From contig JBGPFC010000024.1 of assembly GCA_041483195.1 (NCBI GenBank), positions 1-64,000 on the forward strand: a stretch of 64,000 nucleotides of DNA. The letters run 5' to 3'. This document shows, in pieces, positions 1,754 to 20,573 of this stretch. Below the pieces are notes generated by a model. It was not told the origin of the DNA. It ran no database searches and saw only the letters and a list, made by a program, of their open reading frames with translations. Source of the DNA: Candidatus Eiseniibacteriota bacterium (GTDB taxonomy: Bacteria; Eisenbacteria; RBG-16-71-46). The position numbers and the translations under genes were made by a program. Position 1 is the first letter of the stretch. Every line of letters begins with the position of its first letter.

Positions 1754-1761
<8 letters not shown>
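736..1761 (-). CDS. oppF: Oligopeptide/dipeptide ABC transporter ATP-binding protein (OppF/AppF)
   Basis: Walker [27 protein letters not shown]-terminal GCRFHPRC oligo_HPY motif. Confidence 0.93.
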
Positions 1762-2772
<1,011 letters not shown>

Positions 2773-2776
<4 letters not shown>

Positions 2777-3918
2777 GCCGACTTCCCTCCCAGCACCTTG
2801 CGCGGGTCGAGCGCGTCGCGCAGTCCGTCGCCGAAGAAATTGAAGGCCATGACCGTGACGAAGATCGCCGCCCCGGGAGCGAACAACATCCACGGAAACG
2901 AGGTCAGCACGCGGATGCTGCGCGCCTGATTCAGCATGTTTCCCCACGAGGCGCTCGGCTCCTGCACCCCGACGCCCAGGAACGAGAGGAAGACCTCGCC
3001 CAGGATGAAGCTCGGGATCGAGATGGTGGCCGCCACGATCACGAACGAGAGCGTGTTCGGCAGGATGTGCCGGCGGATGATCCGCAGCCGGCTCATGCCC
3101 AGCGCCTCGGCGGCGGCGACGTACTCCTGGCGCCGAATCGACAGCACCATGCCGCGGATGATGCGCGCGAGCCCCGCCCAGCCGATGAACGCCAGGATCG
3201 CCACGATCCCCAGGTAGATCTGCTGGCTCGGCATGTTGCTGGGAAACACGCTGCGCAACGCGACGATCAGGTAGAGGCCCGGAATGGTGAGCAGCAGCTC
3301 GGTCGAGCGCATGATGACGGTGTCCACCCAGCCGCCGAAGTAACCCGAGATCCCGCCCAGCAGCAGGCCGATCGTGAACGAGATCGCGATTCCTACCAGG
3401 CCCACCGTGAGCGAGATCTGCCCCCCGAACAGCAGCCGCGAGAACTGGTCGCGCCCGAACGGATCGGTGCCCAGCAGGTAGATGCGGGTCGGCGGGTCGA
3501 CCCCGAACAGGTGGCGGTCGCTGGGAATCAGGCCCAGCCAGCGGTAGCGCGCCCCGTGCACGAAGAACCGCACCGGCGATCTGACCGTGCGGTCCTCGCG
3601 GTAGGTGAGGCTCGCGGGGTCCGAGAGCGTGGTGAGCCGCACGAACGGGATGATGTGAAACCCGCCGCGCTCGTCCACCCAGTGGAGCCGTTGGGGCGGG
3701 TGGAAGAATCGGGCGCGATCCATCTCGCCCTGCGAATAGGGCGCAACGAATGACGCGAACAACGCGAGCGCGTAAAGCGCCACCAGTAGCGCGCCGCCCA
3801 GGACGCCGAGGTCGCTCTTGCGGAACTCGCGCCAGAAGATGCGCCACGGCGACTGCGGCGGTGCGGCACGGCCCTCGTCCACGGCCGGAGGCGAGCTCAC
3901 GCGCTCGCGCTCAGTCAT
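2773..3918 (-). CDS. oppC: Oligopeptide ABC transporter permease (OppC)
   Basis: [19 protein letters not shown] (EAA motif), [23 protein letters not shown]. Confidence 0.93.
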
Positions 3919-4879
3919 ACGCGATCCGCGGGTCCGCGATCGCGAGCAGCAGGTCGGCGACCAGGTTCCCGATCACGAGCACGACGGCCGCCATCAACAC
4001 CGAGCCCATCACCAGGTACTGGTCCTTCGCGAGGATCGCGTCGAGCGTGATCCGCCCCAGCCCCGGCCATGCGAAGATGACCTCCGCCACGAACGATCCG
4101 GACACCAGCGCGCCGAGCGTGTACCCGAACAGGGTGATGAGCGGGTTGATCGCGTTGCGCAGCGCGTGCTTGAACACCACGGTGTTCTCGTCGAGTCCCT
4201 TGGCTCGAGCCGTGGTCACGTAGTCGAGACGCAGCACGTCGAGCAGGTTGCCCCGCATCTGGCGCATGCGTCCCGCGAGCGGGATCAGACCCACGACGAA
4301 GGCCGGCAGGACCAGGTGGCGCGAGAGATCGGCGAGCTTGCCCATCGCGTCCAGGTCGTCGTAGTCGAGCGAACGCATCCCGCCCACCGGAAACCACCCG
4401 GTCTTCGCCGCGAGGAACAGGAGCAGCAGGCCGGAGAGCACCTCGGGCACCGAGAGACCGAGGAAGGCGAACACCGAGAGCGACTTGTCGACCCACCCGT
4501 ATTGCCGCATCGCGGCCCACACCCCGAGCGGAATCGCGAGACCCCACGTGATCACCGCCGCCGCCGAGGCCAGCAACAGCGTGTTGGCGAGCCCCTCGCG
4601 CAATACCACGAACACCGGCTGATGCCGCGAGAACGACTCGCCGAAGTCGAAATGAAGGAAGAGGTTCTTCAAGTACAGGGCGTACTGCACCCACCACGGG
4701 CGGTCGAGGCCGAAACGGTGCCGCATCGCCTCGATGGTCTCTGCGGAGATCGCGGGGTTCTCGGCCATCGTGTTCAGGAAATCCCCCGGCGCCAGCTTGA
4801 GCACGAGAAAGGTCAGCGCCGAGACGCCCAGCAACAACGGAATGATCTGGAGCAGGCGCCTGAGGATGTAGATCCGCAT
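3911..4879 (-). CDS. oppB: Oligopeptide ABC transporter permease (OppB)
   Basis: YILRRLL, DFGES, DYVTTARAKGL, HALRNA, EVIFAWPGLG, DPRI. Confidence 0.93.
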   Translation of the reverse strand: MRIYILRRLLQIIPLLLGVSALTFLVLKLAPGDFLNTMAENPAISAETIEAMRHRFGLDRPWWVQYALYLKNLFLHFDFGESFSRHQPVFVVLREGLANTLLLASAAAVITWGLAIPLGVWAAMRQYGWVDKSLSVFAFLGLSVPEVLSGLLLLFLAAKTGWFPVGGMRSLDYDDLDAMGKLADLSRHLVLPAFVVGLIPLAGRMRQMRGNLLDVLRLDYVTTARAKGLDENTVVFKHALRNAINPLITLFGYTLGALVSGSFVAEVIFAWPGLGRITLDAILAKDQYLVMGSVLMAAVVLVIGNLVADLLLAIADPRIAYD

Positions 4880-4891
4880 CGCGCGGCCGGC

Positions 4892-6712
4892 TCAGGCTCG
4901 CGCGCCGCCCGGCTTCACGAACACCTGCTCGATGTTCCACAGCAGCCGGTGCGGGATGACCGAGGGATGGATGTTTCCGAAGCGGTTTCGCGCCGGCATC
5001 TTCTGGATCTGGGTCGGGAGCCAGATGAACCAGCACTGGTCGTTCATGATCGTCTGGATCCGGTCCCAGGTGCGGTGGCGCATCGCCATGTCGTTGCTCG
5101 AAACGTTTTCGGAGATGAGCCGGTCGATCTCGGCTTCCGCCGGGGACTCGGGCTTCGGCTGCTTGATGTTCCAGTAGTGCGTGAGCCCGCTCGAGCGGTA
5201 CACGTTCTGCCCCATACCCGGATCGGGGGGAACGCCGCTCTGCAATCCGAGCAGGATCGCCTCGTACTGGAAGTCCTGCCGGAGATTGGTGATCAGCGTG
5301 TTGAAGTCCACCGGGGTGGGATCGCAGCGGACGCCCACCTTGGCCAGGTCCGCCTGGATGAAATTGCACATCGCGGTGCGGACCTTGTTGTCGCTGTTCG
5401 TCTTCATCGTGAACTCGATGGTGTGGCCCTTCCCGTCCTCGAGGAATCCGTCGCCGTTCGTGTCCTTCCAGCCCAACGAGGCGAGCAGCGCCTTCGCCTT
5501 CACCGGGTCGTAGTCGAAGTGCGGGAGGTCGGGGTTGTACCAGATCTTGTTCCCGGCCGTGGTGTTGCTGAAGTTCTTGACCGCCGCTCCGTAATACGCG
5601 CTCTGGATGATCGCCTCGCGGTCCACCGCCATCGACATCGCGCGCCGGAACACCGGGTTGCTGAACCACGCGTACTTCACGGGATCCACGCGCGGCGATC
5701 CGATCGGCTTGCCGCCCTTCGCGTCACGCACCTTGTTGAGATTGAACCAGAAGAAGCTCGTGTTGAGCGATGGCCCGACGTCGTACAGCGTGTAGTTGCC
5801 GGTCCTCTGATTGTCCTCGTACCACTTGTAATTCTCGGGCTTGACGTTGTCGATCCCGTCGGATTCGCCGGCGCGAAACTTGAGATCCGCCGCGTCCTGG
5901 TCGGGCACGATCAGGAACACCAGCTCGTCGAGGTAGGGCAGCCGCTGGCCCTGCTCGTCGACGCCGAACCAGTAGGGGTTGCGCGTGATGACCGTCTTTT
6001 CGCCAGGGACGTACTGCTTGAGGCGCCACGGCCCGCTCGTCACCAGGCTGTCGGGATCGATGCTGACGGTGTAGGCCGACGCGAAATCGCCGCGCCGATA
6101 GCTGGGTTCCAGCACGTGCTTCGGCATGATGCGGAGCGAGCCCACCGCGGGAACCATCAGCGCGTATGGCCCCGCGAGCTTCGTGACCACCGTGTACGAA
6201 TCGGGCGCCGTGACCTCGAATTTCTTCCCGCCCACCTTCAGCAGGTCCTGGATCGAGGGGTGCAGCGTGTCGTCATACGCGACCTCGAACGAGAACAACA
6301 CGTCTTCCGCCGTGATGGGATGCCCGTCGGAGAACGCCGCGCCGTGTCGCAGGTGCCAGGTCCACGTGAGGCCATCCCCGCTCGTGTCCCAGGATCGCGC
6401 GAGCATCGGGCCGTCCTGCTGGGTGGCATTGTTGAAGTCCGCGAGGGTCGTGAACATCCGTTCGGTGACGTCGGTGGTGGAGGTCTCGTTCCCCATGATG
6501 GCATTGAAGGTCTTCGGGCCCGCGGTCTGGCTCAGCACGAACCGGCCGCCGTAGTGCCCGATCTCGGGGGCGGGCACGGTCATGGTGTCGGCGGGAAGGG
6601 GATGCGTGTCCTTGAACGCCGACCCCGCCTGGCCCGCCACGCCGCCGCATCCGCCGATGCCGCACGCCAACGCGAAGGCAGCTACGCCGCTCACCACGAT
6701 CCGCCTGACCAT
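4892..6712 (-). CDS. oppA: Peptide ABC transporter substrate-binding lipoprotein (SBP family 5)
   Basis: Signal peptide with lipobox-like Cys; LARSWDTSGDGLTWTWHLRHGAAFSDGHPITAEDVLFS family-5 signature; first gene of the oppABCDF set. Confidence 0.9.
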   Translation of the reverse strand: MVRRIVVSGVAAFALACGIGGCGGVAGQAGSAFKDTHPLPADTMTVPAPEIGHYGGRFVLSQTAGPKTFNAIMGNETSTTDVTERMFTTLADFNNATQQDGPMLARSWDTSGDGLTWTWHLRHGAAFSDGHPITAEDVLFSFEVAYDDTLHPSIQDLLKVGGKKFEVTAPDSYTVVTKLAGPYALMVPAVGSLRIMPKHVLEPSYRRGDFASAYTVSIDPDSLVTSGPWRLKQYVPGEKTVITRNPYWFGVDEQGQRLPYLDELVFLIVPDQDAADLKFRAGESDGIDNVKPENYKWYEDNQRTGNYTLYDVGPSLNTSFFWFNLNKVRDAKGGKPIGSPRVDPVKYAWFSNPVFRRAMSMAVDREAIIQSAYYGAAVKNFSNTTAGNKIWYNPDLPHFDYDPVKAKALLASLGWKDTNGDGFLEDGKGHTIEFTMKTNSDNKVRTAMCNFIQADLAKVGVRCDPTPVDFNTLITNLRQDFQYEAILLGLQSGVPPDPGMGQNVYRSSGLTHYWNIKQPKPESPAEAEIDRLISENVSSNDMAMRHRTWDRIQTIMNDQCWFIWLPTQIQKMPARNRFGNIHPSVIPHRLLWNIEQVFVKPGGARA

Positions 6713-7626: not shown

Positions 7627-8319
7627 TCAGCGCGTGAAGCCGAGCCAGTCGTCGACCAGGAACTGGAGGCGTCCGATCAGGAGCGATACCCGCGACATCA
7701 CGGTGTATCCGTAGCCGGCGCCGAAGCCCACCATCAGGAAGAAGATCCCGAGCTTGGACGCGACGCCGAGCGCTCCCTTGTGCTCGCGGCTGAAGAAGAA
7801 GAACAGCAGCGAGCAGATGAGCCCCACCGTGAAGATGACAGCGCTCAGGCTGTCGCCGACGTTACCCGTCCACAGCGGCTGAAGGCTGGCCTGCGCCTGC
7901 GCGACCAGGTCGCCCTGAGCGAAGCCCGTGGTCTTGATGCCGGCGTACACGCCGATGATCACCGCGAGCGACCAGCGCGACAACCAGCCGATCTTTCCGA
8001 ACAGGCGGGTGAACAGCAGCACGCCGAGGATGCCGGGGATCACCAGCCACATGCGGTAGTCGCCCAGCTCGGCCGCCATCATCCCGGTCCGCGCCCCGTT
8101 GATGCCGTGGCCCCCCGCCGCGCGCGCCAGCGGCGACCAGAGATTGGGAACGATCACGGTCCAGTAGTTCAGGATGATGTAGTAGCCGGCCGACACGCCG
8201 ACGAACAGGTGCTCCGCGAACTTGTAGAACGGGTTGTCCTTGTAGAGGAAGCTGAAGATGCACAGCGTGAGCGCCGCGCCGATCCAGATGCCGAAGTCGT
8301 GCGAGGGATGGAGCGTCAT
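7627..8319 (-). CDS. Uncharacterised polytopic membrane protein (230 aa)
   Basis: ATG 8319 (MTLHPSHDFGIWIG) overlaps the upstream stop. About 6 hydrophobic segments; SFLYKDNPFYKFAEHLFVGVSAGY and FGAGYGYTVMSR motifs. Confidence 0.8.
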   Translation of the reverse strand: MTLHPSHDFGIWIGAALTLCIFSFLYKDNPFYKFAEHLFVGVSAGYYIILNYWTVIVPNLWSPLARAAGGHGINGARTGMMAAELGDYRMWLVIPGILGVLLFTRLFGKIGWLSRWSLAVIIGVYAGIKTTGFAQGDLVAQAQASLQPLWTGNVGDSLSAVIFTVGLICSLLFFFFSREHKGALGVASKLGIFFLMVGFGAGYGYTVMSRVSLLIGRLQFLVDDWLGFTR

Positions 8320-9149
8320 GCCTTCACCTCCCGGCTCTTGCTCCACTGCACCACGTTTCCGAGCAGGATGCAGAGCGCAACGAAGTAGTGCGCGAGAGAC
8401 TGGGCATCCATGCCGCGCGTGGCGGTGCCCTTCTCCTTGCGCGCCTTCTCGTATTCTGCGGCTCCCGCCATGCCGCCCAGCAGCCCGCGCAGCTGGTGCG
8501 ACTGGAGGTATGGGTAGTACTCGGGCGCGCTCACCGCGGTGACACCGGCCACCATCGGCAGATGGAAGCGGGCCTCGACCTGCTGCACCCACTCCTTGGT
8601 GCCCGGATAGCCCGCCGAGATGCTCACCAGCAGCGGAAAGCTCGAGTAGTCCCGCACCCCCTGCATGATCGGCATGGATCGCGTGTCGTCGCCCCTGTAA
8701 TCCTTCGGGAACGCGTTCACGATCCCCTGGCCCATCAGCACCATGACCGCTTCGTTGCCCGCCTTGTATCCGAGATTGACGTAGTCCACGCCGTACTTGA
8801 GCGTCGGATACTCCTGCTCGACGATCTGCCGCAGCACGCGATCGACGAGGCCCGGGCCGCCATTCCAGAGGACGGTGACGACCACCTTGCAGTGCTTGTC
8901 GAGCAGGTGCCGCAGCGCGGTCTTCGTCATCGGCACCACCTCGGGAATCGCGCCGGGATCGTAATCGCACGACATGAGCACCGTCGATCCGTTCGGAATC
9001 GCGTCCATCGCGTCGACGAAGCCCTGGACCGGGGGCGAAACGTAGAGCGGCAGCGCGAGCGGGAACAGCAGCGGCAGGAGCACCAGCAGGCCCATCGCGC
9101 CAAACAGCCAGCGCCGGTCCAGCTTTTCGATCGATTGCAGGAGGGACAC
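8316..9149 (-). CDS. Uncharacterised membrane-anchored protein (277 aa)
   Basis: N-terminal and C-terminal TM segments flank a soluble alpha/beta domain (DYDPG..PE, GVDYVNLGY, GLLGGMAGAAEYE). Tight spacing with neighbours. Confidence 0.8.
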   Translation of the reverse strand: MSLLQSIEKLDRRWLFGAMGLLVLLPLLFPLALPLYVSPPVQGFVDAMDAIPNGSTVLMSCDYDPGAIPEVVPMTKTALRHLLDKHCKVVVTVLWNGGPGLVDRVLRQIVEQEYPTLKYGVDYVNLGYKAGNEAVMVLMGQGIVNAFPKDYRGDDTRSMPIMQGVRDYSSFPLLVSISAGYPGTKEWVQQVEARFHLPMVAGVTAVSAPEYYPYLQSHQLRGLLGGMAGAAEYEKARKEKGTATRGMDAQSLAHYFVALCILLGNVVQWSKSREVKA

Positions 9150-9153
9150 GGGG

Positions 9154-9804
9154 TTACTCCTCGCCGCTCAGGTAGGAGCGCTCGATCCCGAGGATCACGC
9201 GCAGGCCGGTCGCCATCACCCCGAGCGCGGCACCCATCAGGATCGCGCGCTTCGACGCGTTCTGCGGAATCTCCATGATCCACTCCTGGATCGCCTGCAG
9301 CCGCAGCGGCTCCGGCACCCCGCTCATCAGCCAGTTCGTGAGCGGCACGCGCCCCAGCATCACGATCAGCGCGGCGGCCGCGAGCAGCCCGGCCTCGATC
9401 GTGCGAATTCGGAAGGCGCGGAAGGCGGCGGAGGCGATGAAGAACGCGAGCAGGGCGAACATCGTGGCCTGCATCGAGGAGTAGAGGTTGTCGTAGATCC
9501 ATTTCGAGCGGGTGCCCGGGTTCAGGAAGCCCTCGCCTTCGACCGCTCCGATGACCACCGTCGCGATCAGCGAGAACACCAGCACGATCTTGTACTGCCA
9601 CCCGGCCTGCCGCTTGTAGATGCCGTCGAAATTGACCCGCAGCGCGTTCGCGCCGCCCAGCACGTATCCGAACGCGACGAGGATCACGGCGCACTGCTGG
9701 AGGAAGTCGGCGGGCACGCTCACCACCTGATGCGGCACGAAGAACGACAGGATCATGAAGAGCCCGATCGCGGCGGTGATGAACAGCGGAACCTCGCGCT
9801 TCAT
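9154..9804 (-). CDS. Uncharacterised polytopic membrane protein (216 aa)
   Basis: About 6 TM segments; ATMFALLAFFIASAAFRAFR and LRVILGIERSYL motifs; RBS GAGGA. Confidence 0.8.
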   Translation of the reverse strand: MKREVPLFITAAIGLFMILSFFVPHQVVSVPADFLQQCAVILVAFGYVLGGANALRVNFDGIYKRQAGWQYKIVLVFSLIATVVIGAVEGEGFLNPGTRSKWIYDNLYSSMQATMFALLAFFIASAAFRAFRIRTIEAGLLAAAALIVMLGRVPLTNWLMSGVPEPLRLQAIQEWIMEIPQNASKRAILMGAALGVMATGLRVILGIERSYLSGEE

Positions 9805-9814
9805 GCGGGTCCTC

Positions 9815-11083
9815 TCACTGGGTCGCCATCCACTGGCTCAGCCAGTGGACATGGAAGGTCTCGAGGAAGCAGCCGATCAGCACCGCGACGATCACCGCGA
9901 GCTTGAGCAGATCCCCGCCCTTCAGGCTGCCGACCAGCTTGGGCTCGCCTGAGAGGTAGGCGCTCGCCGCGTAGAGTTCCTCGCCGATCAGGGTGTAGTC
10001 ACACGCCACGACGAAGAACGGAAGCTGGTGAACGTTGGCGGTGCCCGCCACCTGGATGGCGCCGGTGGCGAAGCCGGTCTCCGCGAGCAGCAGCGACTCC
10101 GCGAAGAACGCGCCCATGAAGATGTGGGCGGCCGGCCGGTCGCGCAGCATGATCCCGGTGATCGCGGCGACGTACGCGAACTGCTCGGGCGAGACGAACC
10201 GAACGCTGTCCGGGTTGTACTGATCGGGGCGCCCCGCGTGCAGGTAGCCGCCCTTGACCATTTCCTCGGCGATCGTGAACGGGATCGGGTACGCCACCGG
10301 CACGGTGATCGGGGTCTCGTACTTGGCGGTGAGCCGGGCGACGCTCTCGAGGATGACGAGGCCGGCCACGGTCTGGATGTCGTCGATGTCGGTGATGCCC
10401 GGGATGAAGAGCACCGGGCGGCCCATCTCGGTCGCGCGCCCGATCGCCTCCTCGATCGCGTCGATTCCGGGAATGCGCCGCACGAACGGCTTCTTGCCCG
10501 ACTGGGCGCTCGCGATGAAGTAGAGGACGAACGCGAAGAACGAGAGCAGGAACACCAGCACGCTCCAGCGCGTCTGATTGATCCACTCCGAGACCGCGCG
10601 CGCCGGCCCGGTCACGCTCAGCGCCGGGGTGCGTCCCCCCGGACCGGCGGCCGAGATGCGGTAGAAGTAGTCGACGTTGCGGCGGACCGACTGATCGGTC
10701 TTGTGCGACGCGCCCGCCGCGGCCGAGTCGACGTCCACCCACGGCCCGCCCGGTGCCTCGGAGCGCTCGATGAAGTAGGCAAGCACGCGGCCGCTGCTGT
10801 CATCGGGCGAGAGCGTCCAGGCCAGCTCGATCCCGCGGCCGGCGTCGTTGACCACGTCGTGCCAGAACAATCCGGAGGCGGGTGCCGGAGCCGGAATCGA
10901 GGCCGGAGGGGCCGCGTTCTGGGCGGAGGCGGCGGAGGTGAGGGTGGCGAGCAGGACGGCCGCGGCCAGCGCTTCGATGCGGATTCGCGGACGCGCCTCA
11001 CTCCGTGGCAACGGGACCCCCGTCTCGGTGCGATTCCAATCCCGCGGTCCGCCTGCGTGTGGATCCCGCGGCCTTCGATGCAC
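9815..11083 (-). CDS. Fibronectin type III-like domain plus DUF6754-like membrane protein; true start probably TTG at 11011
   Basis: Signal peptide (ALAAAVLLATLTSAASA), then FN3-like IELAW...YFIERS...YFYRISA, a TM segment, RRIPGIDAIEEAIGRATEMGRP...DYTLIGEELYAASAYL and a C-terminal TM. DUF6754 label is from memory. Confidence 0.72.
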   Translation of the reverse strand: MHRRPRDPHAGGPRDWNRTETGVPLPRSEARPRIRIEALAAAVLLATLTSAASAQNAAPPASIPAPAPASGLFWHDVVNDAGRGIELAWTLSPDDSSGRVLAYFIERSEAPGGPWVDVDSAAAGASHKTDQSVRRNVDYFYRISAAGPGGRTPALSVTGPARAVSEWINQTRWSVLVFLLSFFAFVLYFIASAQSGKKPFVRRIPGIDAIEEAIGRATEMGRPVLFIPGITDIDDIQTVAGLVILESVARLTAKYETPITVPVAYPIPFTIAEEMVKGGYLHAGRPDQYNPDSVRFVSPEQFAYVAAITGIMLRDRPAAHIFMGAFFAESLLLAETGFATGAIQVAGTANVHQLPFFVVACDYTLIGEELYAASAYLSGEPKLVGSLKGGDLLKLAVIVAVLIGCFLETFHVHWLSQWMATQ

Positions 11084-11095
11084 GCGAACCCGGCG

Positions 11096-11124
11096 AAGCT
11101 AGAACGCGGCGCGCGGCATGTCAA
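11096..11124 (-). promoter_or_regulatory. Sigma70-like promoter upstream of the four-gene membrane module
   Basis: TTGACA-N17-TAGCTT on the minus strand in the intergenic gap. Confidence 0.65.
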
Positions 11125-11148
11125 CGGAATTGCCGCGCCACCCGGGGC

Positions 11149-12273
11149 TCAGGAGGCGATCAGCTCCACGTTCGCGCGCGGCACGATCGCCCGGCTCCGG
11201 TCGTCCGCGAACTCGACCACCAGCACCCTCACGTGCGCCTCGCTGTCGAGCTCCTGCAGCTCGCTCGGCAGCTCGACCACGTTGCCGATGCGTCCGAAAT
11301 AGGGCTGGCGGATGACGCGCAGCAGCGAGCCGATCTCGAGCCCGGTCGAGACCCCGGCATCCGCGGTGCCCGCGGCCTGCGCCGCGCGCGGGATGATGAT
11401 CTCGGGCCGCATCACCCCCGCGCGGATCTGGGTGGCCCCGCTGACCGACGCCATCTGCCCGGCGTGGCCCGAGAGCATGCGATGGGTTCGCGCCGCCATC
11501 GGGATCCGCCCGAATCCCTCGGTGAGCACGAGCGTGAAGCCCAGCTCCTCGGCGCCCGTGATCGCGACCCCGAGGTCGCGCCCCAGCAGCTCGCGCAGGT
11601 CGCGATCGTCGAACCCGCCGACCACCACCGCGGCGACGCCCAGCTCGCGAGCGCGCATCAGCGTGCGGTGCGAGACGTAGGAGCCGCCCACCACCACCTT
11701 CCCGCGATGCGCGGGGACCAGCGCCGCGGCGAGCAGCTCGTCGTCCGGCTTCGTCACCGCGATCGCGATCTCGCCCCAGGTCTCGCCGCCGACGCCGAAG
11801 ATCCCCTGCATGAATGCGCCCTGGGTCTCGATCACGACGCCCTCGCCCGCGATGATCTCGGCCACGCGGCCCTGGACGAAGGCGTTGACCTCGACCGGGA
11901 TCGGCGGCTCGCGCAGGATGAGCTGCCCGGTGATGTGCGAGACGCTCTCGATCGTGCCGTCCGCTGGAGCGGTCACGGTGGTCTGAATGAGTCCGAACAG
12001 GCTCCGGCCGCGCGCGATGATCTCCCCGGAGCGCACCGCGGAGGCGATCGGACGAACCAGCGCGCCCGCGACCTGCGCGGGATCGAGCGAGAGCTTGCCC
12101 GCGACGTTCACGGTCTGAACGTTGCCCGGCAACTCGGTGCGCGCCACTACCGTCTCGGGCGTGACCTCCTGCCCGGGAGCCACCAGCACCTGGCCCTTGA
12201 GCGGGAGCCTGCGCTCGCGGCGCAGCACCGCGTAGTCGGTGACGCGCAGGCCCGGCGTGTAGGCGTGCGCCAT
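11149..12273 (-). CDS. Uncharacterised soluble protein (374 aa) with barrel-sandwich-hybrid-like N-terminus and KOW-like C-terminus
   Basis: Start re-called at ATG 12273 (MAHAYTPGL), 1 nt after the upstream stop. Motifs VLVAPGQEV, VRSGEIIA, VTAPADGTIESV, QGIFGVGGE, LTEGFG, TQIRAGVMRPE and IGSLLRVIRQPYFGRIGNV. Confidence 0.8.
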   Translation of the reverse strand: MAHAYTPGLRVTDYAVLRRERRLPLKGQVLVAPGQEVTPETVVARTELPGNVQTVNVAGKLSLDPAQVAGALVRPIASAVRSGEIIARGRSLFGLIQTTVTAPADGTIESVSHITGQLILREPPIPVEVNAFVQGRVAEIIAGEGVVIETQGAFMQGIFGVGGETWGEIAIAVTKPDDELLAAALVPAHRGKVVVGGSYVSHRTLMRARELGVAAVVVGGFDDRDLRELLGRDLGVAITGAEELGFTLVLTEGFGRIPMAARTHRMLSGHAGQMASVSGATQIRAGVMRPEIIIPRAAQAAGTADAGVSTGLEIGSLLRVIRQPYFGRIGNVVELPSELQELDSEAHVRVLVVEFADDRSRAIVPRANVELIAS

Positions 12274-12274
12274 C

Positions 12275-14086
12275 TCACACCTCCCGCGGGTACACGGCGA
12301 GCGCGCGATTCCACGCCCGCAGCCGCTGGATTCGCGTCGCGTGGTCGGCCGGCAGCGCGAACGGGCGGCGGCCACGGGTGTCGACGATCAGCCCCACCAC
12401 GCCGCCCGGGATCTCCGCGGTGAGCGGCCGGCCCTTGCCGAGCCCGAGGTCGAAGCCGCGCTCGGGTGCCCCCGTGAGCCGCGCGGTTCCATCCGGCGGC
12501 AGCGGAAGCAGCTCGAGCTCGCCGAAGGCGATCCGCCGCGTGACGCTCGCGCTCCCGGGCGCCGCGAGATCGACGGTGACGCACGGCTGACCGGGGCGGC
12601 CGCTCCCGACCGGAGCGAGCACCGCGCCGAGGCGGATCAGGCAGTCGCGCTCGAACACCTGGGTCGCGGCCTCCTCGTGAACGGTGGAGAGCACCCCGAG
12701 CTGGGGCGCCATGAAGATGCTGTCGACCGCGAGCTGCGTGAGCCCCTCGGGGAGAAACGCGTCCACCATCATGAACGCGGCCTGCACGCGACGCGGCGCG
12801 TGCGACAGCACGCCCCCCGAGCCCACGAGCAACCCGAGGTCGAGGAGGTTGACGAGCGATCCGCCGCTCTCGCTCTGGCTCATGATGTCGGAGATGGTGC
12901 GCTCGGTCTGCACGCCCTTGAGGCCCACCGCGAGCGACTTGTGCTGCTCGAACGCGAGCCGCAGCGCCTCGCGGGCGATGGCCTGCTCGATCACCAGGTC
13001 CTCGAGTGCCTGCGGGATGGTGGTGGGACGGATCATCTTGTTCTTGATCCGGTTGCGCAGCTCGACTTCGTCCACCTCGAACGGCACCCAGCGCAGGATG
13101 TTGTCGATCCCCGCCTCGGCCATCACGTTCGACACCGAATAGCTCATGCCGAGATTGGCGGAAACGGTGCGGTTGAAGACCTCCTGAAACACCGAGAACA
13201 CGTCGGTGGTCGCGCCGCCGATGTCCACCCCCACCACCGCCACCCGGTCCCGGCGCGCGACCTTCTCGATGATGATGCCGACCGCGCCCGGCGTCGGCAT
13301 GATCGGGACCGGCGACCAGGTCATGAGCTTCTTGTACCCCGGCGCGTGCGCCATGACGTGCTCCATGAACAGGTCGTGGATCGCGTCGCGCGCGGGTTTC
13401 AGGTTTTCCTGTTCGAGCCGCGGCCGCAGATTGGGAACCACCGAGAGCGCGGTGCTCCCCGCCAGGCACTCTCGGACGATGCCGGCCGCGTCCTTGTTCC
13501 CGGCGTAGATGACGGGCAGCTCGTAGCCCGCGCCGAGCCGGGCCTTGGGGTCGGCGGCCTTCAGGATCTCGGCCATCTCGGCGACGCGTTTCACGTCGCC
13601 CCCGTCGGTGCCACCCGACAGCAGGATCATGTCGGGGCGCAGCTGGCGGAGCCGCCGAATCTTCTCGTGCGGCCGCCGGCCGTCGTTGAGCGCGATGACA
13701 TCCATCACGATCGCCCCCGCCCCGAGCGCCGCGCGCTGGGCGCTCTCCCCCGTCATCTGCAGCACCAGCCCCGAGACCATCATCTGCAGACCGCCGCCCG
13801 CGCTCGAGGTCGAGACGTAGAGGTCGACCCCCGCGTTCCCATGCTGCGGGCTCACGATGCGTTCGCCGTCGAGGATCGGACGCCCCGCGAGCTCCTCGAC
13901 CTCGCGCACGGCGTTCAACACGCCGCGCGTGACATCTTCGAACGGGGCCTCCACGGTGGTCGGGGCCTCGCCGCGCACCACCAGATGGTAGCCGTCGTCC
14001 CGAAGCTCGATGAGGATCGCCTTGGTCGTGGTCGAGCCGCAATCGGTCGCGAGAATCGATCGGATCGGATTCGGCGGGGTCTGCAT
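12275..14086 (-). CDS. GlmL/MutL (glutamate mutase L)-like ASKHA-fold protein, 603 aa
   Basis: Two actin-like phosphate motifs ATDCGSTTTKA and GVDIGGATTDVF; SSAGGGL, ALGAGA, PDMILLSGGTDGG, MPTPGAV, RTVSANLGM, GSGGVLSH. Confidence 0.8.
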   Translation of the reverse strand: MQTPPNPIRSILATDCGSTTTKAILIELRDDGYHLVVRGEAPTTVEAPFEDVTRGVLNAVREVEELAGRPILDGERIVSPQHGNAGVDLYVSTSSAGGGLQMMVSGLVLQMTGESAQRAALGAGAIVMDVIALNDGRRPHEKIRRLRQLRPDMILLSGGTDGGDVKRVAEMAEILKAADPKARLGAGYELPVIYAGNKDAAGIVRECLAGSTALSVVPNLRPRLEQENLKPARDAIHDLFMEHVMAHAPGYKKLMTWSPVPIMPTPGAVGIIIEKVARRDRVAVVGVDIGGATTDVFSVFQEVFNRTVSANLGMSYSVSNVMAEAGIDNILRWVPFEVDEVELRNRIKNKMIRPTTIPQALEDLVIEQAIAREALRLAFEQHKSLAVGLKGVQTERTISDIMSQSESGGSLVNLLDLGLLVGSGGVLSHAPRRVQAAFMMVDAFLPEGLTQLAVDSIFMAPQLGVLSTVHEEAATQVFERDCLIRLGAVLAPVGSGRPGQPCVTVDLAAPGSASVTRRIAFGELELLPLPPDGTARLTGAPERGFDLGLGKGRPLTAEIPGGVVGLIVDTRGRRPFALPADHATRIQRLRAWNRALAVYPREV

Positions 14087-14097
14087 GCGATTCCGGG

Positions 14098-14418
14098 TCA
14101 GGACTTCCGCGCGGCGCGCGCGGCGCGCCGGGCTCGATGCGCTTCGTCGGCGCGCGCTTCGATGAGGGCGACCAGCCGGTCCACGGCGTCACGACGCTCG
14201 ACCAGCAGCGCGAAGCGCCGGTACCCGTCGAGCCGGAACAGAGCGGTGACGATCGGCTCGAAGAAGATGAGCGACTGGCTCGCGACCAGCGACAGCGGCC
14301 GCCCGCTCTCGAGCGCGAGGATCGACGGCACCTCGAGGTGCAGCTCGACCAGGCGCGCGGCGACGCGCTCGAGCAGCGCGAGGTCCTCGGGATCGAGCGG
14401 CGCGGGGCTAGAGGCCAT
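14098..14418 (-). CDS. Small hypothetical protein (106 aa)
   Basis: ATG 14418 overlaps the upstream gene end. Helical protein with PSILALESGRPLSLVASQ; natural amino-acid composition. Confidence 0.7.
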   Translation of the reverse strand: MASSPAPLDPEDLALLERVAARLVELHLEVPSILALESGRPLSLVASQSLIFFEPIVTALFRLDGYRRFALLVERRDAVDRLVALIEARADEAHRARRAARAARKS

Positions 14419-14878
14419 GCTGGGCCACGCGGCGGCGGAGCTCGGGCAGGAGGCGGGGGCGCTCGCCGCTCGGGACCGGCAGCCACAGGCCGCGGAACGA
14501 GGCGCGCAGTCCCGGCTCCGCGACCGGGGAAACGAACAGGCCATCGCGCGAGGTCACCGCGCGGCGAATCTCGGCCCACGCGCGGCGGTCCCATCCGAAC
14601 ACGATTCGCCGCCCCACGCCGGCGTCGTCGACGCGGCAGTGCGCGACCAGATAGGCGGGGCCGAGCGAAAACGCGAAGGCGAGCATCAGCAGCGCGCCCA
14701 TCACCGGGACCAGCCTGAGGCTCGCGAGGATCGCCCACACCAGGAGGATCACGAGGCTGCCGACCACGGCGCGGATCGTGTCCTGACGCCACGGATTGTA
14801 CGACCACTCGAGCGGCGCTTCGCTCGCGAGCGGCGCGATGGCCTGCTCCGCCCCGGCCGCCGGCGCCCGAGTCGTCAT
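14408..14878 (-). CDS. Hypothetical membrane protein (2 TM plus possible PH-like domain)
   Basis: ATGA overlap with the gcvPB stop; two hydrophobic helices followed by RVDDAGV...RRAWAEIRR. Confidence 0.7.
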   Translation of the reverse strand: MTTRAPAAGAEQAIAPLASEAPLEWSYNPWRQDTIRAVVGSLVILLVWAILASLRLVPVMGALLMLAFAFSLGPAYLVAHCRVDDAGVGRRIVFGWDRRAWAEIRRAVTSRDGLFVSPVAEPGLRASFRGLWLPVPSGERPRLLPELRRRVAQHGL

Positions 14879-16374
14879 CCGCGCGCGATCGGCTCGGGCG
14901 CGGGCTCGGCCGCGGCGCTCGGCACGGTCCAGCGCAGCTTGAGCTCACGCGCGGCGCGTCCCTCGTCGAGCCGGCGCGAGGGCGTCGTGTGCGGAGCGTC
15001 GAGCAGCAGCTGCGGCTCCACGCGCGCCTCCTCCGCGATCTGCTCCATCGCCGCCGCGAAGTGATCGAGCCGGTCGAGCGTCTCGGTTTCGGTGGGCTCG
15101 ATCATGAGCGCTTCCTCGACGATCAGCGGGAAGTAGACGGTCGGCGCGTGCACCCCGAAGTCGAGCAGCCGTTTCGCGACGTCGAGCGTCTTCACCCCGT
15201 ACTTGCGCAGATGACGGCCCGAGAGCACGAACTCGTGCATGCAGTGCTCCGGATGCGGCAGGTCGTAAACGCGCGCGAGGCGCCGCATCAGGTAGTTCGC
15301 GTTCAGGATCGCCGTGCGGCTCACGCGCAGCAGTCCCTCGGGACCGAGGTTCAGGATGTAGACGAGCGCGCGCACCAGGATGCCGAAGTTGCCGTAGTAG
15401 GAGTGCACGCGGCCGACCGACCGGGGCCGGTCGTAGTCGAGGCTCAGCATCCCGTCACGCTCCACGATCACCGGCACCGGGAGAAACGGCTCGAGGTGCG
15501 CCGCCACCGCCACCGGCCCGGCGCCGGGCCCGCCGCCGCCGTGCGGCGTGGAAAACGTCTTGTGCACGTTGATGTGCATGACGTCGAAGCCGAGGTCTCC
15601 GGGGCGCACCCGGCCGACCAGCGCGTTCAGATTGGCTCCGTCCATGTACACCTGCGCCCCGGCCTGGTGGGCGAGTCGCGTCACGGCGAGGATGTTGGGC
15701 TCGAACAGGCCGAGCGTGTTCGGCACGGTGAGCATCACGGCGGCGGCCCGGTCGTCGAGCGCCTCCTTCAGCGCATCGAGGCTGACCGTGGCGTGTTCGC
15801 CGGAGGGAATGGTCACCGTCTCGTAGCCCACGAGATGAACGCTCGCGGGATTGGTGCCGTGCGCGGAATCCGGAACGATCACCCGGCGGCGCCGCTCGCC
15901 CTCGCCGCGCGAGCGATGCCATGCGCGGATCAGCAGCAGGCCGGTGGTCTCGCCGTGGGCGCCGGCGGCGGGCTGGGTCGTGACCGCCGCGAACCCGGTG
16001 ATCGCCCCGAGGGTGTCCTGCAGCTCGCGCATGATGCGGATCGCGCCCTGCGAGTGCTCATCGCCGGCGAGCGGGTGGGCGCCCGCCAGGCCCGGCAACG
16101 ACGCGATCTCGTCGTTGATCTTCGGGTTGTGCTTCATCGTGCAGGACCCGAGCGGGTAGAGGCCGCGGTCGATGTGATGATTGAGGATGGAGAGCTCGAT
16201 GAAGTGGCGCACCACCTCGGGCTCGCTGACCTGCGGAAACCGCAGCGTCTCGCGCAGGCGCGCCCCCCGCAACAGCTCGCCGATCGGCATCGCCGGGACG
16301 TCGCACGCCGGCAGCTCCGGGCCGCGATGGCCCTCTCCACCCTGTTCGATCAGCAGCCGGCGCGCGAGGCTCAC
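14875..16374 (-). CDS. gcvPB: Glycine dehydrogenase (decarboxylating) subunit 2
   Basis: GTG 16374 overlaps the gcvPA stop. YPLGSCTMKHNP, QPAAGAHGE, SAHGTNPAS, YMDGANLNA, PLP lysine in HINVHKTFSTPHGGGGPG, IEPTETE. Confidence 0.95.
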   Translation of the reverse strand: MSLARRLLIEQGGEGHRGPELPACDVPAMPIGELLRGARLRETLRFPQVSEPEVVRHFIELSILNHHIDRGLYPLGSCTMKHNPKINDEIASLPGLAGAHPLAGDEHSQGAIRIMRELQDTLGAITGFAAVTTQPAAGAHGETTGLLLIRAWHRSRGEGERRRRVIVPDSAHGTNPASVHLVGYETVTIPSGEHATVSLDALKEALDDRAAAVMLTVPNTLGLFEPNILAVTRLAHQAGAQVYMDGANLNALVGRVRPGDLGFDVMHINVHKTFSTPHGGGGPGAGPVAVAAHLEPFLPVPVIVERDGMLSLDYDRPRSVGRVHSYYGNFGILVRALVYILNLGPEGLLRVSRTAILNANYLMRRLARVYDLPHPEHCMHEFVLSGRHLRKYGVKTLDVAKRLLDFGVHAPTVYFPLIVEEALMIEPTETETLDRLDHFAAAMEQIAEEARVEPQLLLDAPHTTPSRRLDEGRAARELKLRWTVPSAAAEPAPEPIARG

Positions 16375-17711
16375 GGGCGGGCCCCCGCGAGCTTCAACAC
16401 ATCGACCCAGCGGTCGATCTCCTCGCGGCTCCGCTGCTCCGTGACCGCGACCAGCAGCCAGCGCTTCCAGCCGGGGCGGAACTGGCCGAGGTCGACGCCC
16501 GCGAGGATGCCGCGTGGGACCCCGGCGCGCACCACCACCGCGGCGTCCACCGGGCACTCCAGCGCGAACTCGCGAAAGAAAGTTGCGTCGTGCACCAGGC
16601 GGAAGCCCGGCAGCGCGGCCGCGCGACGCGCCGCGTAATGGGAATTCTGAACGCACAGCTCCGCGACCTCGCGCATCCCATCGCGCCCCAGCAGCCCCAT
16701 GTGGATGGTCGCGCGCAGCGCGAGCAGACCCTGGTTGGTGCAGATGTTCGAGGTCGCCTTCTCGCGGCGGATGTGCTGCTCGCGGGTCTGGAGCGTGAGG
16801 ACGAAGCCGCGCTCGCCCCGGCGGTCCACGGTCTCCGCGGCGAGCCGTCCCGGCATGCGGCGCACCAGGTCCCTGCGGCACGCGAAGAAACCGAGCAGCG
16901 GTCCGCCGAAGCTGGGCGGGTTGCCGAGGCTCTGTCCCTCGCCCACCACGATGTCGGCCCCGGTCGCGCCGGGCGGCTCGAGCAACGCGAGCGCGATCGG
17001 GTCGCAGATCGCGACCGCGAGCGCACCCGCGGCGTGCACCCGCGCGTGGAGCTCGGCCGGGCTCTCGAGCAGACCGAAGAAGTTGGGGTGCTGATACAAC
17101 ACGCATGCGACATCGGGGCCGAGCGCCCGCTCGAGATCCGAAGGCGCGCAGCGACCGCCGGAGTCCGCGAGCAGCGTGAGATCACGCCCGTCGAGGTAGG
17201 TGTGCAGCACCTGAAGGATGTGGGGATGGATCGCCCCGGCCGCGACCACCCGGCTTCTGCCGGTCTGCGCGCGGCTCATGAGCACGCCTTCCACCGCCGC
17301 GGTCGCGCCGTCGTAGAGCGAGGCGTTCGCGACGTCGCAGCCGGTGAGCTCCGCGATCATGCTCTGGAACTCGAAGATCGCGGTGAGCGTGCCCTGCGCC
17401 ACCTCGGGCTGGTAGGGCGTGTAGGCGGTCGCGAACTCGGAGCGCATCGCCAGCGCGTTCACGGAGGCCGGAACGAAGTGGTCGTAGATCCCGGCGCCCA
17501 TGAACGACACCGCGCGGTCGGCGGCGTTCTCACGCGCGCGCGCGGCGAACCGCCGCCGCACCTCGATCTCGGAGAGCGGGCCATCGATGGCGGGCGGGGC
17601 CTCGAGCAGCACCTCGCGAGGCACCGACTCGAGGAGCGCGTCGAAGCGGTCCACGCCGATCGCGAGCAGCATGCGACGCTCTTCGTCCGGGGAGAGCCCA
17701 ACGAAGCTCAC
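16371..17711 (-). CDS. gcvPA: Glycine dehydrogenase (decarboxylating) subunit 1
   Basis: GTG 17711 overlaps the gcvH stop. FMGAGIYDH, TAYTPYQPEVAQG, NASLYDG, FGGP, TREQHIRREKATSNICTNQ. Confidence 0.95.
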   Translation of the reverse strand: MSFVGLSPDEERRMLLAIGVDRFDALLESVPREVLLEAPPAIDGPLSEIEVRRRFAARARENAADRAVSFMGAGIYDHFVPASVNALAMRSEFATAYTPYQPEVAQGTLTAIFEFQSMIAELTGCDVANASLYDGATAAVEGVLMSRAQTGRSRVVAAGAIHPHILQVLHTYLDGRDLTLLADSGGRCAPSDLERALGPDVACVLYQHPNFFGLLESPAELHARVHAAGALAVAICDPIALALLEPPGATGADIVVGEGQSLGNPPSFGGPLLGFFACRRDLVRRMPGRLAAETVDRRGERGFVLTLQTREQHIRREKATSNICTNQGLLALRATIHMGLLGRDGMREVAELCVQNSHYAARRAAALPGFRLVHDATFFREFALECPVDAAVVVRAGVPRGILAGVDLGQFRPGWKRWLLVAVTEQRSREEIDRWVDVLKLAGARP

Positions 17712-18097
17712 GCGTGCTGCTCCTCCACCAGCTTCTCGTAGTCCACGCTGCTCAGCAGCCGATCGAGGTCGGCGGGATTCACGGGCTTGAGGCGGATCAT
17801 CCAGCCCTCCCCGTACGGCTCCTGGTTCACCAGCGCGGGGTTGTCCGAGAGCGCGCCGTTGACCTCGATGACCTCGCCCGCCACCGGCGCGTAGAGATCG
17901 CTCACCGTCTTGACCGCCTCGACCACGCCGAACGCCTTCCCGGCCTCGAGCTTCTTTCCGACAGCTGGCAGCTCGACGAACACGATGTCTCCGAGCTGGT
18001 CGGTGGCATATCCGGTGATGCCCACCGTGACGATCCCGTGCTCGCCGCGCGCCCACTCGTGCTCGGACGTGTAACGCACATCCTCGGGGTAGCCCAC
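17708..18097 (-). CDS. gcvH: Glycine cleavage system H protein
   Basis: YTSEHEW, GITGYATDQLGDIVFVELP, lipoyl-Lys motif EAVKTVS, NQEPYGEGW. Confidence 0.96.
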   Translation of the reverse strand: MGYPEDVRYTSEHEWARGEHGIVTVGITGYATDQLGDIVFVELPAVGKKLEAGKAFGVVEAVKTVSDLYAPVAGEVIEVNGALSDNPALVNQEPYGEGWMIRLKPVNPADLDRLLSSVDYEKLVEEQHA

Positions 18098-18115
18098 CTC
18101 ATCCTCCTCTGGCGC

Positions 18116-19225
18116 TCACGCCCGGCGCGAGCCCCGCGTGTAGAACGGCCGCGCCGTAACCGATGCCGGCAGTCGCGTCTCGCCGGCGCGAATCTCGAGC
18201 GCGGTCCCCACGGCGGCCGCTGCGTGTTCGACGTATCCCATGCCGATCGGACGCCCGAGGCTGGGGCTGAACGTCCCGCTGGTCACCGTGCCGACCACGC
18301 GCCCGCGAGACTCGATGGGCATCCCGTGCCGCGGCACGCGGCGGCCATCCAGCGCGAATCCCGCGAGCCTGCGCGCCAGGCCGCGCTCCTTCTGGGCCAG
18401 GAGCGACTCGCGGCCGACGAACGCGCTCTTCCTGAGCTTGACCGTCCACCCGAGTCCGGCCTCGAGGGGCGAAGTCGTATCGTCGATGTCGTTCCCGTAG
18501 AGCATGTATCCGACTTCGAGCCTCAGCGTGTCGCGCGCCCCGAGACCCACCGGCTCGAGACCGACCCTGGCCCCGGCGGACACCAGTCCCCCCCAGACCG
18601 CGGCCCCCTCGCCGCTCTCGAAGTACAGCTCGAATCCGTCCTCGCCGGTGTAACCGGTGCGGGAGATCACGCAGTCCACGCCGAAGGCCGGGCCGCGCAT
18701 GAAGCGGTAGTAACCGAGATCGAGCGCGGCATCCGGCACGTGGCCGCGCAGCACCTCCTGGGACTTCGGCCCCTGCACGGCCAGCAGCGCCGTGCGATCC
18801 GACCGGTCCTCCAGTCGCACGCCGGGGGGGCAGTGGTCCTTCAGCCACGCGAAGTCCTTGCCGATGTTGCTGGCGTTCACGACCACCATGAAGTGATCGT
18901 CGAAACGGTAGACCAGCAAGTCGTCAACGATGCCCCCGTCGGGGCGGCACATGGGCGAATAGACGGCCTGGCCGGCCACCGCCGCCGCGAGATCGTTGGT
19001 GATCGCATGGTCGAGGAACCCGAGCGCTCCGTCGCCCGAGACGTGAAACTCGCCCATGTGGGAGATGTCGAAGAGCCCCGCCCGCTCGCGCACGCACTGA
19101 TGCTCACGCACGTCGCCGGTATAGCGCACCGGCATCTCGAAACCGGCGAACTCCACCATCTTCGCGCCCAGCGCGCGATGGAATTCGAAGAATGGAGTGT
19201 GCCGGATGGTCGCGGGACGCTGCAC
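18116..19225 (-). CDS. gcvT: Glycine cleavage system aminomethyltransferase T
   Basis: Start re-called at GTG 19225 after RBS AGGAG. FDISHMG, AVQGP, SRTGYTGEDGFE, GLGARDTLRLE, VTSGTFSP. Confidence 0.95.
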   Translation of the reverse strand: MQRPATIRHTPFFEFHRALGAKMVEFAGFEMPVRYTGDVREHQCVRERAGLFDISHMGEFHVSGDGALGFLDHAITNDLAAAVAGQAVYSPMCRPDGGIVDDLLVYRFDDHFMVVVNASNIGKDFAWLKDHCPPGVRLEDRSDRTALLAVQGPKSQEVLRGHVPDAALDLGYYRFMRGPAFGVDCVISRTGYTGEDGFELYFESGEGAAVWGGLVSAGARVGLEPVGLGARDTLRLEVGYMLYGNDIDDTTSPLEAGLGWTVKLRKSAFVGRESLLAQKERGLARRLAGFALDGRRVPRHGMPIESRGRVVGTVTSGTFSPSLGRPIGMGYVEHAAAAVGTALEIRAGETRLPASVTARPFYTRGSRRA

Positions 19226-19254
19226 GAAGGTCTCCTGGGGGTCGAAGCGCGCGA

Positions 19255-19283
19255 ACGTTATCCGAACCCTCACGGGCGGTCAA
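19255..19283 (-). promoter_or_regulatory. Sigma70-like promoter of the gcv operon
   Basis: TTGACC-N17-TAACGT on the minus strand, about 30 nt upstream of the gcvT start. Confidence 0.6.
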
Positions 19284-19351
19284 GGCACTCGACCGCGCCG
19301 CAGCGCGACGTTCGCGCGCGTGATCAACTGCGCGATTCGACTCGCGCCGCT

Positions 19352-20560: not shown

Positions 20561-20573
20561 GAGAGCCCCCTCC

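Follow-up and report, generated by a model that had tools for sequence, protein, structure and literature searches.

What is done by an eight-gene run that sits between glycine-cleavage and lipoate genes and encodes an ATPase of a vitamin B12 reactivase family in a genome that shows no glutamate mutase? The question is raised by genes g1 to g8 on contig JBGPFC010000024.1 (assembly GCA_041483195.1) of a Candidatus Eiseniibacteriota bacterium, found in the window, that is, the whole 64,000-nucleotide (nt) stretch of DNA analysed here. The initial annotation took them for a self-contained ATP-dependent membrane machine, such as a transporter or an energy-transducing complex, tied to amino-acid and peptide catabolism. 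We find that the system is real, widespread and undescribed, and that the set divides into a soluble module (g1 to g4) and a membrane cassette (g5 to g8). With a probability of roughly 45%, it imports amino acids or small peptides through exchangeable cassettes that share one ASKHA ATPase, a logic like that of energy-coupling factor (ECF) transporters with unrelated sequence. An ATP-linked membrane machine for amino-acid or peptide use is still the best reading, with ATP-driven transport as its inferred part. Since a single genome can hold as many as 30 paralogous cassettes, we favour a transporter over an energy-conserving complex.

A scan of species genomes with g4 returned at least 439 matching stretches, 80 of which were kept as loci, many of them cut by contig ends; they come from Eisenbacteria, WOR-3, Zixibacteria, Nitrospirota, Planctomycetota, Poribacteria, Armatimonadota, Myxococcota, Bacillota and others. 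Within the 80 loci, tblastn found g3 in 57, g5 in 39, g8 in 31, a lipoyl ligase in 22 and gcvH in 18. At the genome level, for 50 of the 80 (chosen for g4), g3 was present in all 50 and g7 in 49. In a sample of the phylum of locus L031 (Nitrospirota), the same 18 of 151 genomes carry g4 and g7, there in one operon, and among 201 genomes from the phylum of locus L082 (Bacillota), g4 occurs in 13 and g7 in 14, with 12 shared and the two often on separate contigs. In the source phylum g7 was found in 90 of 101 sampled genomes. The genomes include kin that are not independent, and no weight is placed on p-values for these counts. The co-occurrence expected across phyla was thus borne out and the modules do travel together at the genome level; that all eight genes form one self-contained block was not, since the two modules are often unlinked and present in unequal copy numbers. 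The families are large, with at least 8000 relatives of g4 (8000 were scored) and 5432 clusters of g7 at 50% identity, and each gene from g1 to g8 has homologues elsewhere, in genomes where the gene order is mostly kept. No match to DUF6754, the characteristic domain of g5, was found in 14 well-known control genomes, and neither g4 nor DUF6754 was matched in a plasmid collection.

The asymmetry in copy number favours the cassette. Across the 50 genomes, matches to g7 outnumber those to g3 in 27, the two are equal in 20 and g3 leads in 3, some g3 counts being inflated by fragmented or frameshifted assemblies, and 18 of the 50 combine one g3 with two to five g7. Counts of g7 reach 12 in genome G050, 14 in G048 and 30, the highest, in G038. 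G048, the complete genome from which L082 comes, sets its 14 g7 matches against five long g3, and every one of the 11 regions fetched from it (11/11) holds a whole stand-alone g5-g6-g7-g8 cassette without FN3, with 38–48% identity between paralogues. In passages that make no mention of these genes, fermentation of peptides and amino acids is predicted for the organism (PMC10215811).

In the importer reading, which would make the system a new kind of primary-active importer, g5 to g8 would form a membrane complex of about 16 helices arranged as two oppositely oriented halves, with the Rossmann-like domain of g7 outside, the DUF6754 domain of g5 inside, g6 N-in and g8 N-out. The substrate would differ between cassette paralogues, each taking in an amino acid, an N-acyl amino acid or a small peptide to supply the hydrolases whose genes lie alongside, and one or a few soluble g3-g4 modules (with g2 and g1) would serve all cassettes in the cell. 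Hydrolysis of ATP by g3 would, through the swivelling domain of g4, grip and release the cytoplasmic DUF6754 face and so reset the transporter, a step likened to that of B12 reactivases, in which an ASKHA ATPase and a swivelling domain displace a partner subunit. In the source genome, the single cassette would feed the neighbouring threonine-to-glycine and glycine-cleavage pathway. Complex formation, contact between the modules, coupling to ATP, the direction of transport and the substrates are what we infer; the genes, their families, the folds of g4 and g7, the co-occurrence, the copy-number asymmetry and the neighbourhoods are observed.

Group II ECF transporters are described, in the text cited, as having several exchangeable membrane units that share one ATP-hydrolysing module (PMC7755397). 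The likeness is in logic only, namely several stand-alone membrane units per energising module by gene count; none of g1 to g8 matches an ATP-binding cassette (ABC) ATPase, EcfT or S-component family, and the exchangeable unit here consists of four subunits with soluble domains on both faces. Somewhat more tentative still is the broader claim that primary-active importers of this kind, whose exchangeable four-subunit cassettes of inverted topology would be driven by an actin/Hsp70-fold ATPase with a swivelling partner, make up a new superfamily, near-universal in some phyla such as that of the source and a chief means by which fermenters with 10–30 cassettes take up amino acids and peptides. 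An ASKHA-driven importer, if true, would be a new transport mechanism; to our knowledge, known ATP-driven importers use ABC or P-type ATPases. Metabolic models of Eisenbacteria, WOR-3, Poribacteria, Nitrospirota and digester Bacillota would also gain a piece that they now lack. The large families involved are still unnamed, and the name of the g3 family suggests a B12 chemistry that g3 lacks. Genomes with many cassettes make the system testable, as the neighbours of each cassette predict its substrate.

Those neighbours point to substrates with moderate confidence, and the inference draws on Bacillota. In G048 and G050, an amide or peptide hydrolase lies within 4.2 kb of 13 of the 20 cassettes, compared with 3 of 20 random windows (p = 0.003), on a family list fixed after the data had been seen and with 82 of the 140 flanking open-reading frames (ORFs) and all 136 control ORFs scanned. 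Co-directional neighbours include M20, S9, D-aminoacylase-like, creatininase, beta-lactamase-like and tdh-kbl genes, and several of these sets have an IclR/RpiR/GntR-type regulator of their own. Other cassettes of the two genomes follow tdh-kbl or adjoin DHDPS-family and oxidase genes. Like the window, where tdh-kbl opens the gcv run ahead of g1, locus L090 of Bacillota has its cassette placed after tdh-kbl.

A number of results weigh against this reading, beginning with the late choice of families and the partial scan behind the 13 of 20. When any peptidase is counted, 13 of 20 cassettes are set against 8 of 20 controls (p = 0.2). A repeat with the family list fixed beforehand, on 20 cassette regions drawn from nine further genomes, eight of which also supplied the 20 control windows, placed hydrolases by 7 of 20 cassettes and 3 of 20 controls (p = 0.27, not significant); counting two LexA-type S24 matches by the letter of the list raised the former to 9 of 20 (p = 0.08), and adding amino-acid catabolic enzymes post hoc gave 12 versus 4. 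The same list yielded 5 of 20 in G038 (6 with a match just past the threshold), where flanks are short and there was no matched control, and 0 matches in a scanned subset of the ORFs flanking 14 cassette loci from diderm genomes. A Memo-family gene, not catabolic genes, follows the operon in 16 of 17 Nitrospirota loci. The g3 modules are also multiplied, with up to five or six matches per genome, and G048 also encodes ordinary peptide ABC importers. Profile comparisons between the presumed halves (g5/g7 and g6/g8) are not significant (E 0.011–0.16), and we know of no transporter that uses an ASKHA ATPase. Finally, divergent g3-g4 paralogues of Bacillota share operons with ABC systems of FtsX/MacB type, which bring an ATPase of their own.

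These ABC-linked paralogues matter for the role of g3. Their ABC components were checked with Pfam at L130, L187, L188 and L193, for the ATPase only at L186, and by eye at L191, L192 and L194, and some of the g3 paralogues have degenerate phosphate motifs. Since the associated ABC systems, a second membrane machine with no relation to the cassette, own an ATPase, g3 need not be the motor and may be a remodeller or regulator. This leads to a rival that we consider unlikely, in which the cassette is an ion-gradient-driven secondary carrier of inverted topology, with g3-g4 as a chaperone or regulator that uses ATP to remodel it during assembly, gating or repair. Paralogues found with ABC systems that need no extra motor are consistent with such a role, as are the oppositely oriented halves and the polar residues conserved in or near helices of g5, g7 and g8; MutL, moreover, is described in the passage cited as a reactivating chaperone (PMC4682846). 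The near-obligate co-occurrence and the very high conservation of g3 (56–88% identity across phyla), however, suit a core catalytic step. Secondary carriers also rarely need four subunits and an ATPase. The paralogue operons themselves encode two FtsX-type permeases, an ABC ATPase and, once, an HlyD-like protein, often with XRE-TPR regulators nearby.

Table 1. Features of the eight-gene system and its flanks in the 64,000-nt window
Feature	Position	Strand	Description
Opp/Dpp-type ABC peptide importer	736-6712	-	Complete; past the lipoyl ligase
g8	7627-8319	-	230 aa; about six-helix membrane protein, predicted N-out, opposite to g6
g7	8316-9149	-	277 aa; helix, outer Rossmann-like alpha/beta domain, helix; candidate substrate-capture subunit
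g6	9154-9804	-	216 aa; six-helix membrane protein, predicted N-in; conserved cytoplasmic SAAxRAFR motif
g5	9815-11011	-	398 aa; FN3 + DUF6754 (PF20539) membrane protein
Promoter-like site, sigma70-type	11096-11124	-	TTGACA, 17 nt, TAGCTT; ahead of the membrane cassette
g4	11149-12273	-	374 aa; hybrid + swivelling + KOW/SH3-like domains; constant partner of g3
g3	12275-14086	-	603 aa; long-form MutL/GlmL-family ASKHA ATPase, PF13941
g2	14098-14418	-	106 aa; small helical protein; candidate adaptor
g1	14408-14878	-	156 aa; two membrane helices + bacterial PH-like domain; accessory, patchy presence
tdh-kbl-gcvT-gcvH-gcvPA-gcvPB	14875-21683	-	Run of genes upstream of g1

The locus was confirmed as first described, with all eight ORFs on the minus strand between 7627 and 14878, unchanged in size (Table 1). 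The genes overlap at gcvPB/g1 (4 nt, ATGA), g1/g2 (11 nt) and g7/g8 (4 nt) and are otherwise separated by 11 nt (g2/g3), 1 nt (g3/g4), 137 nt (g4/g5), 10 nt (g5/g6) and 4 nt (g6/g7); 70 nt beyond g8 begins the predicted ligase, which matches LplA-B_cat. For g5 we picked a TTG start because the start it encodes resembles a signal peptide. The genome measures 4.17 Mb at 70% GC and is 96.8% complete, each of the eight genes is single-copy in it, and their nearest named homologues are from Candidatus Eisenbacteria. Pfam and NCBIfam searches matched only g3 (PF13941) and g5 (PF20539 and FN3) among the eight, in agreement with the families proposed for them.

The promoter expected in the one long gap also has a counterpart, a TTGACA-17 nt-TAGCTT site in which the −10 box agrees with consensus at only 3 of 6 positions and which a consensus promoter scan did not list. 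All 17 related loci examined, themselves kin and not independent, have TTGAC within 200 nt past the stop codon of g4, compared with 52 of 1130 background windows. This conserved promoter-like site indicates that the four membrane genes can be transcribed apart from the soluble module. No RNA element was listed for the 64,000-nt stretch. Some Nitrospirales (L038:11134-13594 and L045:4622-6182) have genes for two or three secreted proteins of the Tll0287-like type (PF11845) between g4 and g5.

The assignment of g3 to PF13941 is strong (E 2.7e-123), and its phosphate-1 (DCGSTTTK) and phosphate-2 (DIGGATTD) motifs are intact and invariant across the core family; a sequence search of the PDB gave no significant match. 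It shares the ASKHA core and the intact nucleotide motifs with GlmL/MutL (NF040745, TIGR01319) and Or-4 (NF040744) of this family, from which it differs in length, with a 120-residue C-terminal extension, in pairing with g4 and in the lack of a B12 mutase neighbour. The reading of g3 as a plain GlmL/Or-4 reactivase whose B12 enzyme is encoded at another locus and whose neighbours are unrelated is largely refuted, even though the genome has a methylmalonyl-CoA mutase and other B12-binding proteins. The scores of g3 lie below the GlmL, Or-4 and TIGR01319 cut-offs (217/475, 202/600 and 157/204 bits, score/cut-off). As the initial annotation had noted for the window, no B12-dependent glutamate or ornithine mutase is present, and this extends to the genome: PF09043 gave no match there, in a search that does detect this family in 4 of 5 other genomes, and PF06368 (GlmE) gave none there or in 50 others, its controls matching weakly or not at all. 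In G048, a separate short g3 homologue lies directly beside oraS/oraE and five long forms lie elsewhere; in a quick tree with long branches, the short form falls outside the long clade on a branch of 8 changes per column. As a 96.8%-complete genome shows no glutamate mutase or B12 aminomutase, we reject the GlmL reactivase assignment for g3.

Another parallel comes from diol and glycerol dehydratase reactivases, in which, according to the portion cited, an ATPase and a swivelling domain displace a partner subunit (PMC7674605). Together g3 and g4 supply the same two domain types as DdrA/GdrA, here on two chains, with extra hybrid and KOW domains and no dehydratase. A DdrA-type reactivase was not among the 50 fold matches listed for g4, and the parallel is one of design.

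The predicted structure of g4 (mean confidence score, pLDDT, 89.6) is modelled as a barrel-sandwich hybrid domain (49–123), a swivelling beta/beta/alpha domain (about 150–299) and a KOW/SH3-like domain (310–374). Fold comparison with VIA-align matched enzyme I of the phosphotransferase system (PTS; Z 9.6), RraA (8.8), KOW (8.7) and RnfC (7.7), and a sequence search of the PDB gave weak matches only, to NusG/Spt5/RraA. The hybrid domain is lipoyl-like and of a kind also present in RnfC/NqrA. The best-conserved loops, GVAITG and ATQIRAG, have lower model confidence, which is in keeping with a possible role as binding loops. Two candidate modifications were rejected, phosphorylation of a histidine, as only 12 of 74 sequences have His at the enzyme-I-like position and the swivelling domain lacks any conserved His, and lipoylation, as no Lys is conserved.

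The enzyme I match raises group translocation, or covalent activation, as a rival: a hydantoinase-A-like kinase g3 would phosphorylate an amide substrate or relay phosphate through g4 to DUF6754, in effect a PTS running on ATP. Hydantoinase_A is the nearest other family of g3 (weak matches in 44 of 46 family members), the middle domain of g4 has its best match in the phospho-His domain of enzyme I, g4 has an invariant Thr239 and Thr281, DUF6754 contains a nearly invariant Cys-Asp, and many membrane units drawing on general soluble components is PTS logic too. We nevertheless regard it as distinctly improbable, given the missing His, a Z of 9.6 that is tied with non-phosphorylated folds such as RraA, and neighbouring ordinary hydrolases that would need no phosphorylated substrate. 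Unlike the PTS, the system has no phosphoenolpyruvate-binding barrel, and its neighbours are amide hydrolases, not sugar-phosphate enzymes; and in contrast to hydantoinase A and the oxoprolinase ATP-binding subunit, the subsets of neighbours annotated around g3 included no recognisable hydantoinase B partner.

Of the two small proteins, g1 is indeed short, as stated initially, and is more than that, a two-helix membrane protein in whose family bPH_6 is matched by 7 of 29 members. g2 adjoins g3 in most loci and directly precedes g5 in L028, L058, L133, L142 and L044. Variants of the module were also seen. Bacillota loci L049, L056, L078, L080, L082 and L087 carry a tandem second g3-g4 pair with an extra hybrid repeat of about 77 residues in its g4; L185:7269-10034 encodes a 921-aa protein with a MutL domain at 74–512 and some 400 residues more that match no Pfam family, alongside a normal g3 elsewhere in its genome; and at L054:201-3038 and ten other WOR-3-type loci, g4 lies away from g3, directly after a TMEM260-like glycosyltransferase gene.

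In the cassette, g5 matches PF20539 at E 7.9e-114 and consists of a signal peptide-like start, an outer FN3 domain, a membrane helix, a cytoplasmic DUF6754 alpha/beta domain and a C-terminal membrane helix. It is the best-conserved subunit between paralogues (48%, compared with 38–39% for the others), and DUF6754 is the most conserved part. The g7 model is of high confidence (pLDDT 97.3); the alpha/beta domain recognised initially is there, held by a membrane helix at each end instead of a single anchor. Its best fold match is MT0777 (Z 10.3), which gives no function, and it also resembles RCK-type ligand-binding folds (Z 8.5–8.7). Foldseek returned no g7 match at E 0.001, atlas look-alikes led only to unnamed clusters for g7 and to no usable match for DUF6754, and PDB sequence searches found nothing significant for g6, g7, g8 or DUF6754. 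g6 belongs to no Pfam or NCBIfam family. In g8, five helices exceed the threshold and a sixth is presumed.

The topology is predicted from charge bias over alignments, a statistic of sequence, which gives out-in-out for g5, in-out-in for g7, N-in for g6 and N-out for g8. Natural g7-g8 fusions (3 of 24 long proteins) contain an extra hydrophobic linker, and the outer end of g5 is swapped between FN3, a PQQ-like propeller, OmpA and a g7-like domain (the last in 3 of 120); both agree with the predicted topology. One of the half-versus-half profile comparisons aligns 94 columns at matching positions, and to call the halves inverted paralogues is a guess. Polar residues conserved in or near helices are E36, R210 and R217 of g8, H254 and N265 of g7, and D367 and K370 of g5, and no Cys is conserved in g6, g7 or g8. 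No fusion of DUF6754 to g1–g4 was seen among the 120 longest-class matches listed.

With an outer ligand-binding-like domain, the cassettes could instead be a receptor array, sensing nutrients through g7 and signalling through DUF6754 to shared g3-g4, whose KOW domain would act on transcription or translation. The many membrane units per soluble module, the NusG/Spt5-like end of g4 and the RCK-type resemblance of g7 all suit this, and we still judge it a doubtful explanation: the cassettes are co-directional within catabolic operons that already carry regulators, about 16 membrane helices are more than receptors need, and KOW/SH3 barrels serve widely as interaction domains. Two or three diverged cassettes stand in tandem at L024, L051, L086, L144, L145, L168, L202 and L207, and decayed cassette fragments adjoin an intact copy at L095:13440-14826 of G048.

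The initial statement that no functional description was known agrees with our literature search, which found no mention of DUF6754 and no description of the system in sources outside subscription journals and supplements, where a supplement table could list the genes. New here are the multiplication of cassettes with controls, the cassette promoter, the evidence on topology and the ABC-linked paralogues.

The tie to glycine cleavage suggested by the source locus did not extend to the family as a whole. gcvH stands beside g4 in 18 of the 80 loci and in none of those from Nitrospirales, Bacillota, WOR-3 or Poribacteria, and the link is lineage-specific. We rate as very unlikely a complex for energy conservation or linked to lipoate that would work alongside glycine cleavage or 2-oxoacid dehydrogenases. 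Of the 80 loci, 22 have a lipoyl ligase after the cassette and 18 have gcvH before it, which such a complex would explain, as it would the lipoyl synthase gene upstream in 4 Nitrospirales loci and the lipoyl-like hybrid domain of g4; yet g4 has no conserved Lys, no redox-cofactor motifs were found, 30 paralogues would be senseless for an ion pump, and of 17 further Nitrospirota loci, judged by eye, just 2 have a LipA-like neighbour. With Rnf/Nqr, there is no family match and no conserved Cys in g6, g7 or g8, and only the fold of the hybrid domain is shared. The genome also has two LpdA over the cut-off, which led us to reject a replacement of dihydrolipoamide dehydrogenase.

In Nitrospirota, the Memo-family gene is co-directional with g2–g8 and has an N-terminal extension (L148-L164, L031, L035, L037, L038 and L045). 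The gcv run upstream of g1 is shorter in relatives L013, L017, L020, L023, L027 and L041, where gcvPA/PB are absent and gcvT-gcvH are kept. The Opp/Dpp-type importer past the ligase is syntenic in 20 of the 80 loci, as judged by OppA similarity.

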